DNA of 64,000 nt from Anaeromyxobacteraceae bacterium (lineage in GTDB: Bacteria > Myxococcota > Myxococcia > Myxococcales > Anaeromyxobacteraceae): the NCBI GenBank assembly GCA_047602405.1, contig JASGHJ010000001.1, positions 768,001-832,000 on the forward strand, written 5' to 3'. Of the stretch, positions 18,631-32,017 are shown piece by piece (position 1 is the stretch's first letter; every line of letters starts with the position of its first letter). The notes under the pieces were generated by a model. That model had not been told where the DNA came from. It did not search any database and saw nothing but the letters and a program-made list of their open reading frames with translations. A program made the translations under genes and the position numbers.

Positions 18631-19042
18631 GTGACGTCGGACCTCGCCGGCCTCCTCGCCCGCCACGGCATCCAGCCCTCCGCCCAGCGGATGGCCGTGG
18701 CCGCGTACGTGCTGGACACCGAGGATCACCCCTCGGCCGACCAGGTCTTCGCGAAGGTGAAGCGGAGCCACCCCTCGAATCTCGCGCGCGACCGTCTACA
18801 ACACCCTCAACCGGTTCGTGCGGGAGGGCATCCTCCGCACGCTCGTGCTTGCGGAGGGCCGGGTCGTCTTCGACCCGAACGTGAGCCCGCACCACCACTT
18901 CATCGACGAGGCGACCGGGCGCATCCACGACATCCCGTGGGACGCGCTCAGGGTCTCCCGCGTGGAGGCCCTCGAGGGCCTCGACGTCCGCGAGTACCAG
19001 GTGGTGCTGCGCGGGCGCCAGAAGCAGCACCGCAGGTCGTAG
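18631..19042 (+). CDS. Fur-family regulator, PerR/Irr-like (+1 frameshift near 18779)
   Basis: QRMAV...HPSADQVF...PS(I)SRATVYNTLNRF...FDPNVSPHHHFID; no CxxC zinc motifs; lies upstream of rubrerythrin. Confidence 0.9.
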
Positions 19043-19097
19043 GCGCGCTGTCCTGCCACGGCCCGATAAGGGTCGTGCTCGTTTCCGTTGCGAACGC

Positions 19098-19163: not shown

Positions 19164-19580
19164 ATGGCCAACCTCAAGAACTCGAAGACCGAGAAGAACC
19201 TCAAGGACGCGTTCGCGGGCGAGTCGCAGGCGAACCGCCGCTACCTCTACTTCGCGAAGGTCGCCGACGTGGAGGGCTACCCGGAGATCGCCTCCAACTT
19301 CCGCGAGACCGCCGAGGGTGAGACCGGCCACGCGCACGGCCACCTCGACTTCCTGAAGACGGTCGGCGACCCGGCCACCGGCCTCCCGCTCGGCGACACG
19401 ACCCTCAACCTCAAGGCCTCCATCGCCGGCGAGACGCACGAGTACACGGACATGTACCCGGGCATGGCGAAGACCGCCCGCGACGAGGGCTTCTCCGAGA
19501 TCGCCGACTGGTTCGAGACGCTCGCGAAGGCCGAGAAGAGCCACGCCGGGCGCTTCGAGAAGATGCTGAAGACGCTGTAA
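19164..19580 (+). CDS. Short rubrerythrin (ferritin-like, no rubredoxin domain)
   Basis: [47 protein letters not shown]. Confidence 0.95.
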
Positions 19581-19757: not shown

Positions 19758-20320
19758 ATGCGTCCCGTGAAGCGCGAAGAGATCCTCGACCTCGCCGCCT
19801 ACGAGAAGTCCCGCGAGGCCATCCGTCCGTCCATCCTCGACGCGAAGCGCCGCCGGCGCGTCCACGTCGGCGGCGTGCTGACGTTCCTCTTCGAGAACAC
19901 GGCGACCGTGCGCTACCAGGTGCAGGAGATGCTCCGGGCCGAGCGCATCCAGAAGGAGCCGGAGAATCGCGCACGAGATCGAGACGTACAACGAGCTCGT
20001 CGGCGGGAAGGGCGAGCTCGGCTGCTCGCTGCTCATCGAGATCACCGACCCCGAGGAGCGCGCGAAGAAGCTCGGGCAGTGGCTCGCGCTCCCGAAGCAC
20101 CTCTACGTGAAGACCGAGGACGGCGAGAAGCACCGCGCCCGCTTCGACGAGCGGCAGATCGGCACCGACCGGCTCTCGTCGGTGCAGTACCTCCGGTTCG
20201 ACGTGAAGGGTCGCCAGGCCCATCGCGGTCGGCAGCGACCTGCCCGGCCTCACCGCCGAGACGGCGCTCGACGGCGAGCAGCGCGAGGCGCTGCGGCAGG
20301 ACCTCGCGAGCGACGCCTAG
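19758..20320 (+). CDS. DUF3501 family protein (+1 frameshifts near 19966 and 20215)
   Basis: AYEKSR...KRRRRVHVG...[20 protein letters not shown]...(EIETYNEL)...[11 protein letters not shown]3501 is the usual partner of short rubrerythrins. Confidence 0.85.
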
Positions 20321-20424
20321 GCGGTCCGCTGAAGGATCACCGTCGATCCGCCGGAGCAGGACCGTCCGTACGCTGACGCAGTACGGCGTTGCGCCCGGCC
20401 CGCGCCCTCGGTTATCCCCGGAGC

Positions 20425-21918
20425 GTGAGCCCACCCTCGAGCCCCGCGCAGGCGCCCGGCGCCCGGCCCGACCCGTCCGCTCCGCCCGCCATCTCGCTCC
20501 TCGGCGCCGCCGTCCGGTACGGCGCCGTCACGGCGCTCGCGCCGCTCGACCTCGCGCTCCGCGCGGGCGAGCGCGTCGCGATCGTCGGGCCGAGCGGCGC
20601 GGGCAAGACCACCCTCCTCAAGCTCCTCAACACCACGCTCGCGCCCACCGAGGGCACCGTGGCAGTGCTGGGCGAGGAGCCGGCGCTGCTCTCCGCGCGG
20701 GCGCTCCGCCGGCTGCGCGCGCGCATCGGCACCGTCCACCAGCAGCTGCACCTCGTCCCGCAGGCGACCGTCTTCCAGAACGTGGTCGCCGGCCGGCTCG
20801 GGCGCGCGACGCTCGCCGGTGCGCTCGCGGCCCTGCTCTCGCGGCGCGAGGCCGCGGCGGTGCGCGCGCTGCTCGCCGAGGTCGGCATCCCGGAGAAGCT
20901 GCACGAGCGGCTCGACCGGCTCTCCGGCGGCGAGCAGCAGCGGGTCGCCATCGTCCGGACCCTGCACCAGGCGCCGGACCTCGTGCTCGCCGACGAGCCG
21001 CTCTCGGCGGTCGACCCCGAGCGCGCGAGCGAGCTCGCCGCGCTGCTGGCCCGCGCGTACGCGGGGCGCACGCTCGTGGTCTCCACGCACCGGATCGAGC
21101 CGCTGCTGCCCCACGTCGACCGCGTGATCGGCCTGCGCCGCGGGGAGCTCGCCTTCGATCTCCCGGCCGAGCGGGTGCGGCTCGCGGACCTGTCGCGCGT
21201 GTACCGCTCGGAGCGCGCGGAGGCAGGCCAGGCCTCCGGCCTGCGCGCCGCGCCGGGCGGGCCAGCGGCCGCGACCGTCGACGAGCCGGCCGGCCTCCTG
21301 ACGCTCGCGGCCTCGAGCACGCCGGCCGAGACCGTCGTCCCGCCCGCGCTGCGCCGCTTCGTGCGGCTCTACCCCGGCGTCCGGCTGCACCTCGTGCAGG
21401 GCGGCTCCGCGGCGGTCGAGGCAGCCGTGCGGGAGGGCCGGGCGGAGCTCGGCTTCGTCGGCGCCCGGCCCCTCGCCGACGGGCTCGAGCAGACGCTCGT
21501 GGCCGACGACGAGATCGTCGCGGTGGCCGCGCCGGCGCTCGACCTCGGCCCCCTGCCGCTCGCGCTCGAGGACCTCGCCCGGGTCCCCCGCGTGGAGCGC
21601 GAGGCGGGGTCCGGCACCCGCGCCGTGCTCGAGGACCACCTCCGCGGGCTCGGCGTGACGCTGCCGCCGGCGGTGCTCGAGGCGGAGGGGCTCGCGGCCC
21701 TGCGCGCCGCCGCGATCTCCGGCGTCGGGCTCGCGTTCGTCTCGCGCCGCGCGGTGGCGGACGACCTCGCGACCGGGCTGCTCCGGGTGGTGCCGGTCGC
21801 CGGGCTCGAGATCCCGCGGCACGTGTTCGCAATCCACCGGCCGGCGCCCTCGCCGTCGGCCCGGGCGTTCCTCGAGGTCGCGCGCGCCTGCGCCGGTGCG
21901 CCGGGGGCCGGCGGGTGA
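20425..21918 (+). CDS. PhnC-like ABC ATPase fused to a LysR substrate-binding domain
   Basis: GPSGAGKTT, LSGGEQQRVAI, LADEP and STH, followed in frame by GLLTLAASSTP...FVRLYPGVRL...REAGSGTR...GVGLAFVSRRAV (LysR effector domain). No HTH. Confidence 0.9.
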   Translation: MSPPSSPAQAPGARPDPSAPPAISLLGAAVRYGAVTALAPLDLALRAGERVAIVGPSGAGKTTLLKLLNTTLAPTEGTVAVLGEEPALLSARALRRLRARIGTVHQQLHLVPQATVFQNVVAGRLGRATLAGALAALLSRREAAAVRALLAEVGIPEKLHERLDRLSGGEQQRVAIVRTLHQAPDLVLADEPLSAVDPERASELAALLARAYAGRTLVVSTHRIEPLLPHVDRVIGLRRGELAFDLPAERVRLADLSRVYRSERAEAGQASGLRAAPGGPAAATVDEPAGLLTLAASSTPAETVVPPALRRFVRLYPGVRLHLVQGGSAAVEAAVREGRAELGFVGARPLADGLEQTLVADDEIVAVAAPALDLGPLPLALEDLARVPRVEREAGSGTRAVLEDHLRGLGVTLPPAVLEAEGLAALRAAAISGVGLAFVSRRAVADDLATGLLRVVPVAGLEIPRHVFAIHRPAPSPSARAFLEVARACAGAPGAGG

Positions 21919-23789: not shown

Positions 23790-24650
23790 ATGTCCTTCCG
23801 CACCACCTCCGCCCTCACCCTCCTCGCAGTCCTCTCCCTCACCTCCCCGGCCCGCAGTGCGGCCCAGGAGCTCCGGGTGAGCGCCATCCCCGACGAGGCG
23901 CCCACCGAGCTCGTGCGCAAGTTCGCGCCGCTCGGCGCCTACCTCGAGAAGCAGCTCGGCATGAAGGTCTCCTTCGTGCCGGTCTCCGACTACGCCGCCA
24001 CCGTGGAGGGCCTCGCCGCCGGCAAGCTCGACATGGTCTGGTACGGCGGCTTCACCTTCGTCCAGGCGCGCCGCCGCACCGGCAACGCCGTGCCGCTCGT
24101 GCAGCGCGAGGAGGACGCGCACTTCCACTCCAAGTTCATCGTGCCCGCCTCCTCGAAGGCGCAAACCCTCGCCGACCTCAAGGGCGCGAACTTCGCGTTC
24201 GGCTCGGTGAGCTCGACCTCCGGCCACCTCATGCCGCGGCACTTCCTGCTCCAGGCCGGCATCGACCCCGAGAAGGACTTCTCGAAGGTCGCCTTCTCCG
24301 GCGCGCACGACGTGACCGCGAAGTGGGTCGAGGCCGGGAAGGTGGACGCCGGCGCGCTCAACGAGTCGGTGTTCAAGAAGCTCGTCGACGAGGGCAAGCT
24401 CGACATGACGAAGATCCGGGTGCTGTGGACCACGCCGGATTACCAGGACTACAACTGGACCGTCCGCGGCGACCTCGACCCGAAGCTCCAGGCGAAGCTC
24501 AAGGACGCCTTCCTCGCGCTCGACCCCAAGAACCCCGAGCAGAAGGCGATCCTCGATCTGCAGCGGGCGTCCAAGTTCATCCCGACGTCGCCCGCGAACT
24601 ACACCAGCATCGAGGCCGCCGCGAAGTCGGCGGGGCTGATCAAGGACTGA
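23790..24650 (+). CDS. PhnD-type ABC substrate-binding protein, resembling the putative selenate-binding subfamily
   Basis: Signal peptide; SAIPDE...FVPVSDYAATVE...DMVWYGGFTFVQAR, FAFGSVSSTSGHLMPR, FSGAHD, GALNESV, YQDYNWT. The subfamily call is from memory of the motif pattern. Confidence 0.88.
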   Translation: MSFRTTSALTLLAVLSLTSPARSAAQELRVSAIPDEAPTELVRKFAPLGAYLEKQLGMKVSFVPVSDYAATVEGLAAGKLDMVWYGGFTFVQARRRTGNAVPLVQREEDAHFHSKFIVPASSKAQTLADLKGANFAFGSVSSTSGHLMPRHFLLQAGIDPEKDFSKVAFSGAHDVTAKWVEAGKVDAGALNESVFKKLVDEGKLDMTKIRVLWTTPDYQDYNWTVRGDLDPKLQAKLKDAFLALDPKNPEQKAILDLQRASKFIPTSPANYTSIEAAAKSAGLIKD

Positions 24651-30039: not shown

Positions 30040-31101
30040 TTATCCGGCGAGGTGCAGGGCCGCCCGGGTCGCGAGGAAGACGAGGGCCGCGGCGATGGCG
30101 GACGCCGGAATCGTGAAGATCCACGCCCAGATGATGCGCCCAGCCACCCCCCACTGCACCGCCCGGGAGCCCCGGGTCGCCCCGACCCCGACGATGGCGC
30201 CGGTGATGGTGTGGGTGGTCGAGACCGGGATGCCCCAGTGCGCGAGGGCGAGGATGGTCACGCCGCCGCCGGTCTCGGCGCAGAAGCCGCCGATGGGCTG
30301 CAGCTTCGTCAGGTTGTGGCCCATCGTCTTCACAATGCGCCAGCCGCCGAAGAGCGTGCCGAGGCCGATCGCCGCGTGGCACGAGAGCACCACCCAGAAC
30401 GGCACCGGGAACTTCGCCGCCACGTCGGCGGTGGAGACCTGGTTCGACCAGATCGTGCCGTAGAGGATGAGGCTGATGATGCCCATGACCTTCTGGGCGT
30501 CGTTCGTGCCGTGGCTGTAGCTGAAGATCGCGGCCGAGAGGAGCTGCAGCCGGCGGAACCAGATGTCGACGGCGGCGGTGCGCGCGTGGCGCACCACCCA
30601 CGCCGTCGCGACCATCATCGACGAGCCGAGCACGAAGCCGATCACCGGCGACAGCACGATGAACGAGACGATCTTGAGGATGCCGGACGGGATGAGCGCG
30701 CCCACCCCGAGCGCCGGGATGGTGGCGCCGACGATGCCGCCCGCGAGGGCGTGCGAGGACGAGGACGGCAGGCCCCACCACCAGGTGAGGAGGTTCCAGA
30801 TGATGGCGCCGAGGAGCGCGGAGAAGATGACCGTCAGGACGAGCGGGACGCCGAGCGCCCGCAGCATCTCGAAGTGGACGATGCCCTTGCCCATGGTCGC
30901 GGCGACCTTGAGCTCGGCGCCCCACAGCACCGGCGCCGCGGAGATGAAGTTCCAGAACGCCGCCCAGACCACCGCCGCGAGCGGCGTGAGCACCCGGGTC
31001 GAGACCACCGTGGCGATCGAGTTCGCGGCGTCGTGGAAGCCGTTGATGAAGTCGAACGCGAGCGCGACGATGATGAGGAGGACGACGGCGGCGACGAGCA
31101 T
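30040..31101 (-). CDS. pit: Inorganic phosphate transporter (PiT family)
   Basis: NGFHDAANSIAT, GLPSSSSHA, HGTNDAQK, PVSTTH. Confidence 0.95.
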   Translation of the reverse strand: MLVAAVVLLIIVALAFDFINGFHDAANSIATVVSTRVLTPLAAVVWAAFWNFISAAPVLWGAELKVAATMGKGIVHFEMLRALGVPLVLTVIFSALLGAIIWNLLTWWWGLPSSSSHALAGGIVGATIPALGVGALIPSGILKIVSFIVLSPVIGFVLGSSMMVATAWVVRHARTAAVDIWFRRLQLLSAAIFSYSHGTNDAQKVMGIISLILYGTIWSNQVSTADVAAKFPVPFWVVLSCHAAIGLGTLFGGWRIVKTMGHNLTKLQPIGGFCAETGGGVTILALAHWGIPVSTTHTITGAIVGVGATRGSRAVQWGVAGRIIWAWIFTIPASAIAAALVFLATRAALHLAG

Positions 31102-31116
31102 GGCGGGAGGTGCGCC

Positions 31117-31752
31117 CTAGCCCTGGCTGAGGACCAGGCCCTCGATGACGTTTGCGACGTCCTCGGCCCGGTCGGTGGCGCCCTCGATCAGGTCGATGAT
31201 CTCCTTCCACATCATGACGGTGAGGGGATCGTTGGCCTTGCGGAAGAGCTTCGCCATCGTGCGGCGGGTGAGCGAGTCGGCCTGGTTCTCGAGGACGTTG
31301 ATCTCGCGGCAGGCGTCGAGCACCGCGTCGGGGTTCTTCTTGAGGTCGCGCAGGTGGTGCACGGCCTCGTGCATCTTCTCGGCCTGGGCGACGAGCACCG
31401 CGGAGAGCTCGCGGGCCTCGGGCAGGATCGAGTCGATCTCGTAGAGCGCCAGGCGGCCGGCGGCGCCGTCGGCGAGGTCGATCACGTCGTCGATGCGCGA
31501 CAGCAGCCGGTGGATCTCGGCGCGGTCGAAGGGCGTGATGAACTGGGAGTGGAGCCGGGCGAACGCGCGGTGGGTGACGTCGTCCGAGCGGTGCTCGACC
31601 TCCTTGATGGCCTGCACCTTCTTCTGGACGTCGGTGAAGTCCTCCAGGAGGTCGCGGAACAGCTTCGTCCCCTCGACCACGCAGGCGGCCTGGGCCTCGA
31701 AGTCCGAGAAGAAATCGTCGGCCCGCGGCATCAGCTTTTCGAACAGTCCCAT
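31117..31752 (-). CDS. DUF47 phosphate-transport regulator (Pit accessory)
   Basis: EHRSD, FITPFDRAEI, ENQAD, TDRAEDVAN; directly upstream of pit. Confidence 0.92.
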   Translation of the reverse strand: MGLFEKLMPRADDFFSDFEAQAACVVEGTKLFRDLLEDFTDVQKKVQAIKEVEHRSDDVTHRAFARLHSQFITPFDRAEIHRLLSRIDDVIDLADGAAGRLALYEIDSILPEARELSAVLVAQAEKMHEAVHHLRDLKKNPDAVLDACREINVLENQADSLTRRTMAKLFRKANDPLTVMMWKEIIDLIEGATDRAEDVANVIEGLVLSQG

Positions 31753-32017
31753 CGGTCTCCTCCCGGCGCGGGCGCACCATACCCCGTGGGACTCCATTCG
31801 CAAACGGGTTGTGTCGGGCGGGTGCCGTGGGTCCGGGCGGGGCTCCGGAAACGCCCATGGGGCGCACGGTTCCGTGCGGAACGACCCGTGCCGAGGGTAG
31901 GCGCGCGGGGGGTGCATGTGAACCTTGTCGCTGGCCCGAGGGAGCCCCGGCGTTCAGGGCCCCGCGGCGCTCCCTCCGTCCCCCCGGACGGACCGTTCAC
32001 CCTGTCGTGAGGAGCGG

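Follow-up and report, generated by a model that had tools for sequence, protein, structure and literature searches.

A putative selenium importer whose ATPase carries a LysR-type effector-binding domain in Anaeromyxobacteraceae

The 64,000-nucleotide stretch analysed here (the window; Anaeromyxobacteraceae bacterium, assembly GCA_047602405.1, contig JASGHJ010000001.1, positions 768,001 to 832,000) contains a gene in which the ATPase of an ATP-binding cassette (ABC) importer continues into the effector-binding domain of a LysR-type transcription regulator. The two parts are joined in a single open frame of 497 codons ending in TGA, the fusion recurs in separate genomes and the LysR domain is maintained under purifying selection. 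On its residue signature the domain is of the LysR_Se type associated with selenium metabolism, and the cargo of the importer is probably a selenium oxyanion, either selenite or selenate. We propose, at a strength slightly short of an even chance, that the LysR domain is a cytoplasmic selenium sensor that brakes the ATPase when its ligand is bound.

The fused ATPase and its LysR domain

Pfam assigned residues 40-193 to ABC_tran (PF00005, E 5e-33) and residues 287-487 to LysR_substrate (PF03466, model positions 3-205 of 209, E 1e-41), with no match to HTH_1, the helix-turn-helix (HTH) domain, in the 497-aa protein, whose residues 1-260 are ABC ATPase. A split or truncated LysR transcription factor is rejected as the identity of the gene. 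The top NCBIfam match of the N-terminal half was PhnC (TIGR02315, 187 bits, under the cut-off of 266), and the Walker A, Q-loop, LSGG, Walker B DE and H-switch motifs are intact in the window protein and in 120-121 of 121 fused relatives (the tally omits two sequences whose cut ends lack Walker A). The LysR half contains the motifs AASSTP and REAGSGTR, and third-position GC is 0.99 in the ATPase as in the LysR domain. The linker is variable in sequence and narrow in length (26-41 aa from Y260 to A296 in 64 aligned proteins), and the stop of the ATPase overlaps the start of the permease in a GTGA at 21915-21918. An earlier sequence-only reading of the window had described a PhnC-like nucleotide-binding domain running in frame through an Ala/Gly/Pro linker into a full LysR domain without HTH, with its stop coupled to the permease start, and all of this was borne out.

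The AlphaFold2 one-chain model had a mean predicted local distance difference test score (pLDDT) of 90.1 and a predicted template modelling score (pTM) of 0.84, with low pLDDT in the linker at residues 270-279; such a pTM despite a low-confidence linker suggests a preferred packing of the two domains. The LysR half of the model matched the sulfite-responsive regulator YeiE (8sbh_A) with Z 23.7 and a root mean square deviation of 1.9 Å over 197 residues, together with a sequence match of E 1e-18. A single-sequence AlphaFold2 prediction of the LysR half gave a pLDDT of 35.5. A prediction of the ATPase and LysR halves as a complex scored 0.00 in two runs in which the controls were not folded either, and is used neither way.

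The sulfite pocket of YeiE is formed by S96, S97, N126, S127, E145, R191, S195 and T197, of which E145 selects sulfite over sulfate, an E145S mutant being able to bind sulfate (accessible text of PMC8931317). The equivalents in the window copy by alignment are S297, S298, G327, S328, G346, R392, S396 and T398, and six of the eight are identical (S297, S298, S328, R392, S396, T398). The Ser/Ser/Ser/Arg/Ser/Thr oxyanion cage of YeiE and CysL (7erp, 7fdf, 8sbh), the nearest solved structures of the domain, is kept, whereas the sulfite-selecting Glu145 is replaced by Gly. Glycine stands at this position (G346, window 21460) in all 120 fused domains gathered, the set to which residue counts refer; R392, S396 and T398 are each present in 120 of 120 and S297 and P300 each in 118. 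A sulfite sensor of the CysL/YeiE type is excluded by this replacement. Three arginines are specific to the fusion, R389 (120/120), R472 (120/120) and R487 (117/120), and may form a new contact.

With Pro300, Gly346 and Asp327 (the last as family consensus) the fused domains carry the signature of LysR_Se regulators (LysR_Sec_metab, NF040786) and of archaeal HrsM, Pro300 apparently being the proline of Fig. S5 in PMC5322559. Unlike those regulators, the fusion is HTH-free and cannot bind DNA, has its own invariant arginines and has a changed GSTEA segment. LysR_Sec_metab was the best NCBIfam LysR match; the domain by itself scored 104.8 bits, the cut-off of 250 being set for whole proteins. 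Of 120 free regulators akin to an intact gene in genome G281, 100 were scanned and 38 lay above the LysR_Sec_metab cut-off; proline was found in 36 of the 38 and glycine also in 36, the CysL/YeiE-like rows having mostly Glu, in a set that was gathered with a LysR_Se query. As an independent test, a profile of 15 fused domains was run against 1.84 billion representatives, and 24 of 30 full-length free regulators from the top of the search passed the LysR_Sec_metab cut-off (the selection passed over fragments, a top hit that was truncated, one protein already scanned and below cut-off, and algal proteins with a double domain). Judged by these residues and profiles, the domain is LysR_Se-type, not CysL-type, and derives from a transcription-factor sensor. 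The sequence-only reading had likewise taken a transcription factor as the source; the motifs it named are present, but the CysL-like pattern that it saw in them has to be replaced by a LysR_Se-type one. Five long proteins (P0250, P0252, P0257, P0338, P0389) have tandem LysR pairs and low-complexity stretches and are, by eye, probably algal nuclear-encoded regulators.

Distribution, selection and origin of the fusion

PF00005 and PF03466 were both present in 119 of the 120 best matches that make up the homologue list. The closest named homologues are from Anaeromyxobacter and public databases label the proteins generically; names of higher groups follow these labels. Of 24 same-genus genomes 14 had a full-length, stop-free match, as against none of the 16 genomes drawn with them from other genera of the order, and the presence of the domain pair in independent genomes, which the sequence-only reading had proposed as a check, is thereby established. 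The opposite outcome that it had envisaged, a fusion absent from relatives and a decayed domain, is contradicted by the shared fusion and by the selection described below. In a wider draw, 31 of the phylum's 301 genomes had the binding-protein family TIGR04553. Among 35 loci fetched from Myxococcota, 21 had a fused ATPase, 9 had a plain one and 5 were undecided owing to contig ends or gene order, and two of the 21 (G170 and G281) belong to another family of the order. Outside Myxococcota the ATPase was plain in 7 of 7 operons fetched. The plain ATPases of both sets (7 outside Myxococcota, 9 in Myxococcota operons) are 200-280 aa long. A contig scan returned 80 loci of which none matched past residue 286, the scan having caught generic ABC motifs, and 5 of the 80 proved to sit in TIGR04553-positive genomes. 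The distribution beyond the groups searched is drawn from protein searches without taxonomy.

Across 64 aligned proteins the modal-residue frequency was 0.72 for the ATPase and 0.68 for the LysR half, with 0.32 for the linker. The ratio of non-synonymous to synonymous substitution rates (dN/dS) of the LysR half was 0.05-0.26 in 11 of 12 pairs, compared with 0.03-0.36 for the ATPase and 0.21-1.36 for the linker, in pairs that share members and are not independent and with dS compressed by GC bias. The junction is taken as genuine because the same unbroken fusion recurs in separate genomes, as seen in assemblies rather than reads.

In the ATPase tree, all 40 fused rows fell into one clade (support 96/88) in which three unfused rows were nested (L142, L145 and P0120), and seven unfused orthologues fell outside it. 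This suggests a single gain of the LysR domain followed by up to three losses, all within the order of the window. L142 and L145 leave no space for a LysR remnant ahead of the permease, and P0120 is a metagenome call whose surroundings were unseen. Eleven ATPase positions were peculiar to fused members when compared with only 11 unfused rows, without a clear interface patch, and the lineages that lost the LysR domain mostly retain them. In the LysR-domain tree, a quick search of 98 rows (25 of the 120 fused domains, 72 of the 120 free regulators, plus CbbR), the fused domains formed one clade (SH-aLRT, the Shimodaira-Hasegawa approximate likelihood-ratio test, 99) on a long stem. The LysR domain may have been copied from a LysR_Se gene beside the operon, an arrangement still seen in G281; this order of events is put conditionally because the fused clade joins the Pro/Gly-type regulators weakly.

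Several members depart from the common form. P0253 (504 aa) and P0254 (483 aa) are divergent fusions in which the pocket has drifted, P0253 lacking R-E-x-G-S-G-T-R, and may be early-branching or decaying. At locus L169 (genome G012) the permease and binding protein are frameshifted and the fused ATPase is intact; this genome is 56% complete and sequencing error is likely. P0243 (911 aa; G281, L150:1900-5560) is an N-terminally extended fusion with the order GGDEF, PilZ, ABC and LysR, and P0247 (722 aa) has PilZ, ABC and LysR. RxxxR and (D/N)xSxxG motifs were found in both, from which we presume that cyclic di-GMP may be a second input. The permease of G281 also has, by eye, a PilZ-like extension at its C-terminus.

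The selenium link, the proposed brake and its alternatives

From the upstream gene to the permease, the fused gene is the only one that encodes an ATPase. Its operon resembles TIGR04553 systems and cyanobacterial PhnD1CE in having a binding protein above the TIGR04553 cut-off, a PhnD1 pocket, a PhnC-like ATPase and a PhnE-like permease, and differs from the other TIGR04553 operons fetched outside Myxococcota, where the ATPase is plain. The binding protein keeps the full PhnD1 pocket (Y / S-T-S / H / D-Y, aligned to 7s6g and 5lq5), cyanobacterial PhnD1 proteins being the nearest solved binding proteins (E 1e-63). A classical phosphonate PhnCDE system is ruled out by the scores for PhnC (given above) and PhnD (TIGR03431, 193 of 261 bits), both under cut-off, together with the failure to find PhnJ in the window's own genome (98% complete), in which PstB is present. 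No paper was found that shows the cargo of selD-linked TIGR04553 members. By joining a candidate selenium transporter to a candidate selenium sensor, the fusion is evidence for a selenium role of TIGR04553 that is independent of gene order.

Gene order and co-occurrence were followed in 121 genomes from the family of a betaproteobacterial Undibacterium genome, a family that we take to be Burkholderiaceae. TIGR04553 was found in 70 of these and selD in 106; all 70 TIGR04553 genomes had selD, and none of the 15 selD-less genomes had TIGR04553. The selD gene lay within 500 bp of the TIGR04553 gene in 18 of the 70 and within 15 kb in 52. Leaving out the unpublished genome G579 gave 69 of 69 with selD, 18 within 500 bp and 51 within 15 kb, in genomes that as kin are not independent. 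A further nine TIGR04553 genomes reached via other loci all had selD. Near the Myxococcota operons, an intact LysR_Sec_metab gene (254.8 bits) adjoins the fused operon of G281 (L150) and faces its end, a short YedF-like gene lies near the operon (L139 scanned, L163 in the same cluster) and a formate dehydrogenase with an in-frame TGA stands beside three unfused operons of one genus. The window's own genome encodes SelD with an in-frame TGA, SelA and tRNA-SeC, with selD on another contig than the operon. SelA was present in 30 of 31 TIGR04553 genomes compared with 217 of 301 overall, a tally that includes the unpublished genome G201, is confounded by kinship and carries little weight. LysR_Se has been reported only in selD-containing organisms, with selenophosphate proposed as effector (accessible text of PMC5322559). 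The tie to selenium, which the sequence-only reading had drawn, along with sulfur, from CysL-like LysR domains, is through the binding protein, selD linkage and LysR_Sec_metab kinship stronger than was claimed. Of the 35 genomes tested for a free LysR_Sec_metab above cut-off, G281 alone had one, next to its operon, and none turned up in the window's own genome. This scarcity is no proof that control was handed over to the fusion, because the regulator is equally missing from the nine unfused genomes.

The fused gene encodes the only ATPase of an ABC importer operon of three genes, and in the proposed mechanism the ATPase homodimer would carry two sensor domains, one per subunit. The C-terminal LysR domain would sense a cytoplasmic selenium species, and the ligand-bound pair would hold the ATPases apart in ModC/MetN fashion, slowing ATP turnover and uptake. 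A feedback brake on transport had also been proposed in the sequence-only reading. The domain is very probably a regulatory add-on dispensable for transport, since it is missing from the basal orthologues and has been lost in as many as three lineages. Its ligand is probably a selenium species and, by analogy with ModC and MetN, ligand binding is likely to inhibit; given a regulatory role, it is also likely that two copies of the domain hold the ATPase pair apart on binding. Regulatory role, selenium ligand and inhibition taken jointly stand at a little under an even chance. Because glycine replaces the glutamate that excludes sulfate in YeiE, the ligand may be selenite or a selenium anion of tetrahedral or bulky shape, such as selenate or selenophosphate, and it is to these last two that the widened pocket points. 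A brake would be favoured by the toxicity of selenium, an element that cells nevertheless need. It is conceivable, if doubtful, that the ATPase reads selenophosphate, the product of SelD, through its transcription-factor sensor and that control of uptake moved in this way from gene to pump; the free regulator, which passed the cut-off in no more than 1 of the 21 fused genomes tested, would then be dispensable.

The nearest solved systems provide two models of control. Foldseek ranked CmpC (9u9z) first and NrtC (8wm7) eighth, aligned over both halves with 17-18% identity and a template modelling score (TM-score) of 0.40; none of the solved chains covered both domains, the best TM-score over the query being 0.43. 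In NrtC and CmpC the C-terminal domain binds nitrate and is a copy of the periplasmic protein; the empty domain of CmpC locks the ATPases through Arg-Glu/Asp salt bridges and nitrate frees them, and the domain of NrtC docks PII (accessible text of PMC13287603 and PMC10945777). The importer ATPases of NrtABCD and CmpABCD resemble the fusion in bearing a C-terminal two-lobed anion-binding domain, which there exerts cytoplasmic control. However, that domain is a copy of NrtA/CmpA of ~330-360 aa present once per heterodimeric ATPase pair, whereas here a 200-aa LysR effector domain sits on the only ATPase gene, with no second, unfused one. In ModBC of Methanosarcina and MetNI of E. coli, paired C-terminal domains bind ligand and prop the ATPases open (accessible text of PMC10710835). 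The fusion shares with these an intact ATPase, and its single ATPase gene would, from ABC architecture, imply two C-terminal domains; the regulatory folds of ModBC and MetNI differ from each other and from the LysR domain, and their ligand is the cargo. With the sequence-only reading, we take these folds to be TOBE in ModC and C2 in MetN. The name C2 also appears in PMC10710835.

A number of observations count against the proposed selenium brake. No selD was found at any of the 35 Myxococcota loci fetched, only 3 of the 21 fused loci have a selenium-linked neighbour, and SelA is near-universal in the family of the window (41 of 42), so that its co-occurrence says little. The window copy has Gly327 where YeiE has N126 and where 105 of 120 fused domains have Asp, and it departs from the family also at A301. 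The fused LysR clade adjoins the Pro/Gly-type regulators, including the intact G281 gene, with an SH-aLRT of 85 on a midpoint root, and in the most distant pair the dN/dS was 0.65 for the LysR half and 0.45 for the ATPase. In CmpC, the closest precedent, ligand relieves inhibition. The ligands of PhnD1 are phosphite, phosphate and methylphosphonate, and 'selen' has no occurrence in the accessible text of that paper (PMC10284923). The effector of HrsM/LysR_Se is still called an open question (accessible text of PMC11097638).

The domain could regulate a selenium importer in another manner, as an empty lock released by ligand (CmpC-like) or as a docking site for a partner (NrtC-like). CmpC and NrtC, the two solved ATPases aligned by Foldseek across both halves, work in these ways, and the invariant, fusion-only R389, R472 and R487 would suit a fixed protein-protein contact such as the salt-bridge lock of CmpC. 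We nevertheless consider this unlikely: each CmpC or NrtC transporter carries a single regulatory domain, compared with two here in a symmetric layout as in trans-inhibited ModBC and MetNI, and uptake switched on by selenium already present would be less sensible if sensor and cargo concern the same element. Slightly less likely still is an importer of phosphite or phosphate like PhnD1CE, with a domain that senses phosphate, sulfate or another non-selenium anion. Retention of every PhnD1 ligand residue, a Gly-widened pocket that could admit any tetrahedral anion and the lack of selD beside the Myxococcota loci fit such an importer. Against it stand the tight linkage of TIGR04553 to selD in another phylum, the presence of selD in the nine other genomes, a LysR_Se-type donor domain and neighbours such as LysR_Se, the YedF-like gene and the selenocysteine-containing formate dehydrogenase; in the window's own genome, moreover, Pst is present and PhnJ missing (no search was made for phosphite dehydrogenase).

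A domain that exerts no control over the ATPase, and instead captures imported selenium at the membrane to buffer it or pass it on towards reduction and SelD, or pairs with a free LysR protein, would be compatible with the conserved pocket and flexible linker and with fused-specific ATPase positions that are few and mostly retained where the domain was lost. It is likewise unlikely in our judgement, as a free LysR_Sec_metab partner above cut-off exists in only one of the 35 genomes and not in the window's own, the C-terminal fusions to importer ATPases characterised in the accessible text of the papers cited are regulatory, and two relatives add an N-terminal PilZ sensor, suggesting a protein that gathers control inputs. 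The least probable explanation by far, and one that we regard as barely credible, is a fusion without function, be it a passenger or an artefact of assembly. The domain is missing from as many as three lineages within the fused clade, and the junction is seen in assemblies rather than reads (the one run listed shares 0.05 of the words); the identical junction at 21 of the 30 loci that could be decided, the domain pair in 119 of the 120 homologues, the invariant pocket and purifying selection rule out misassembly or decay.

In the literature searched, which lacked most subscription papers, no description of a LysR effector domain joined to an ABC ATPase was found; the terms 'fused', 'fusion' and 'ABC' are absent from the accessible text of a 2024 LysR review (PMC11495319; term search) and 'LysR' from that of a review of transporter regulation (PMC10710835). 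The sequence-only reading, which did not recognise the architecture as characterised, stands in that respect, but it missed NrtC and CmpC, which lower the novelty of the principle: control of an importer ATPase by an anion-binding two-lobed domain is already known from them. The fusion itself is apparently undescribed, and it differs from them in having taken its domain from a transcription factor, in its symmetric layout and in its probable ligand. A specific high-affinity prokaryotic selenium transporter is reported as not yet identified (PMC13188914, 2026; PMC11097638) and selenium sensing by LysR_Se/HrsM as an open question (PMC11097638), in the accessible text of both papers, and the fusion unites candidates for both in one polypeptide. 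It also adds a transcription-factor effector domain to the modules recruited for control of ABC importers. Material for tests is at hand in a soluble domain of 200 aa, a periplasmic protein, natural domain-less orthologues and cultured, fusion-bearing Anaeromyxobacter strains. If the selenophosphate reading were true, this would be the first defined prokaryotic selenium-specific importer and the first LysR effector domain gating a transporter, and it would offer a soluble handle on the ligand of LysR_Se/HrsM.

Coordinates and neighbouring genes

Table 1. The fused gene, its parts and its operon partners in the window.
Feature	Position	Strand	Basis
Fused gene: ABC ATPase, linker and LysR effector-binding domain, HTH-free, 497 aa	20425..21918	+	Pfam, NCBIfam, AlphaFold2 model
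PhnC-like nucleotide-binding domain, aa 22-260	20488..21204	+	PF00005; TIGR02315 187 bits; motif conservation
Walker A K61; Walker B E191; H222	20605; 20995; 21088	+	
Ala/Gly/Pro-rich linker, 28 aa (aa 261-288)	21205..21288	+	64-protein alignment; low pLDDT; dN/dS
LysR_Se-type effector domain (by signature), aa 289-488	21289..21888	+	Pfam; alignment and model match to YeiE
Double (fused) PhnE-type permease, 559 aa	21915..23594	+	TIGR01097 429 bits in two stretches; PF00528 twice
Periplasmic binding protein, TIGR04553 (putative selenate ABC binding protein)	23790..24650	+	366 bits vs cut-off 250

Upstream of the operon lies a rubrerythrin gene (19164-19580, PF02915). The gene at 19758-20321 seems to be split by a frameshift near 19970 and a Fur-like gene near 18640-19060 also seems frameshifted, both by eye. 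Downstream by ~5.4 kb, a PiT-family phosphate transporter with an accessory gene was recognised by eye at 30040-31917 on the minus strand; among the loci compared, the accessory gene is common only to the closest genome.

The binding-protein gene is inverted and faces the ATPase and permease genes in one branch (L137, L138, L141, L142, L144, L145, L146, L148, L161, L171). A PRK10621-like membrane protein (172 bits, below cut-off), which we take to be a TauE/SafE-type anion exporter, recurs beside the binding-protein gene at L140, L144 and L146. NifB/NifE-like nitrogenase cofactor genes, assigned by eye, adjoin the operon in four genomes (L139, L158, L163, L165). In G281 a possible porin gene (by eye; no NCBIfam match) precedes the binding protein, L150:7721-8887 and L150:9748-10992 being this gene and the LysR_Sec_metab gene. 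Elsewhere in the window's own genome (G000:C2:26403-32219, L023), a CbbR-like regulator is transcribed away from a gene resembling the RuBisCO large subunit, and a phosphoribulokinase-like gene lies close by; with names assigned by eye, this is a likely Calvin-cycle cluster in a genome of the Anaeromyxobacter type.

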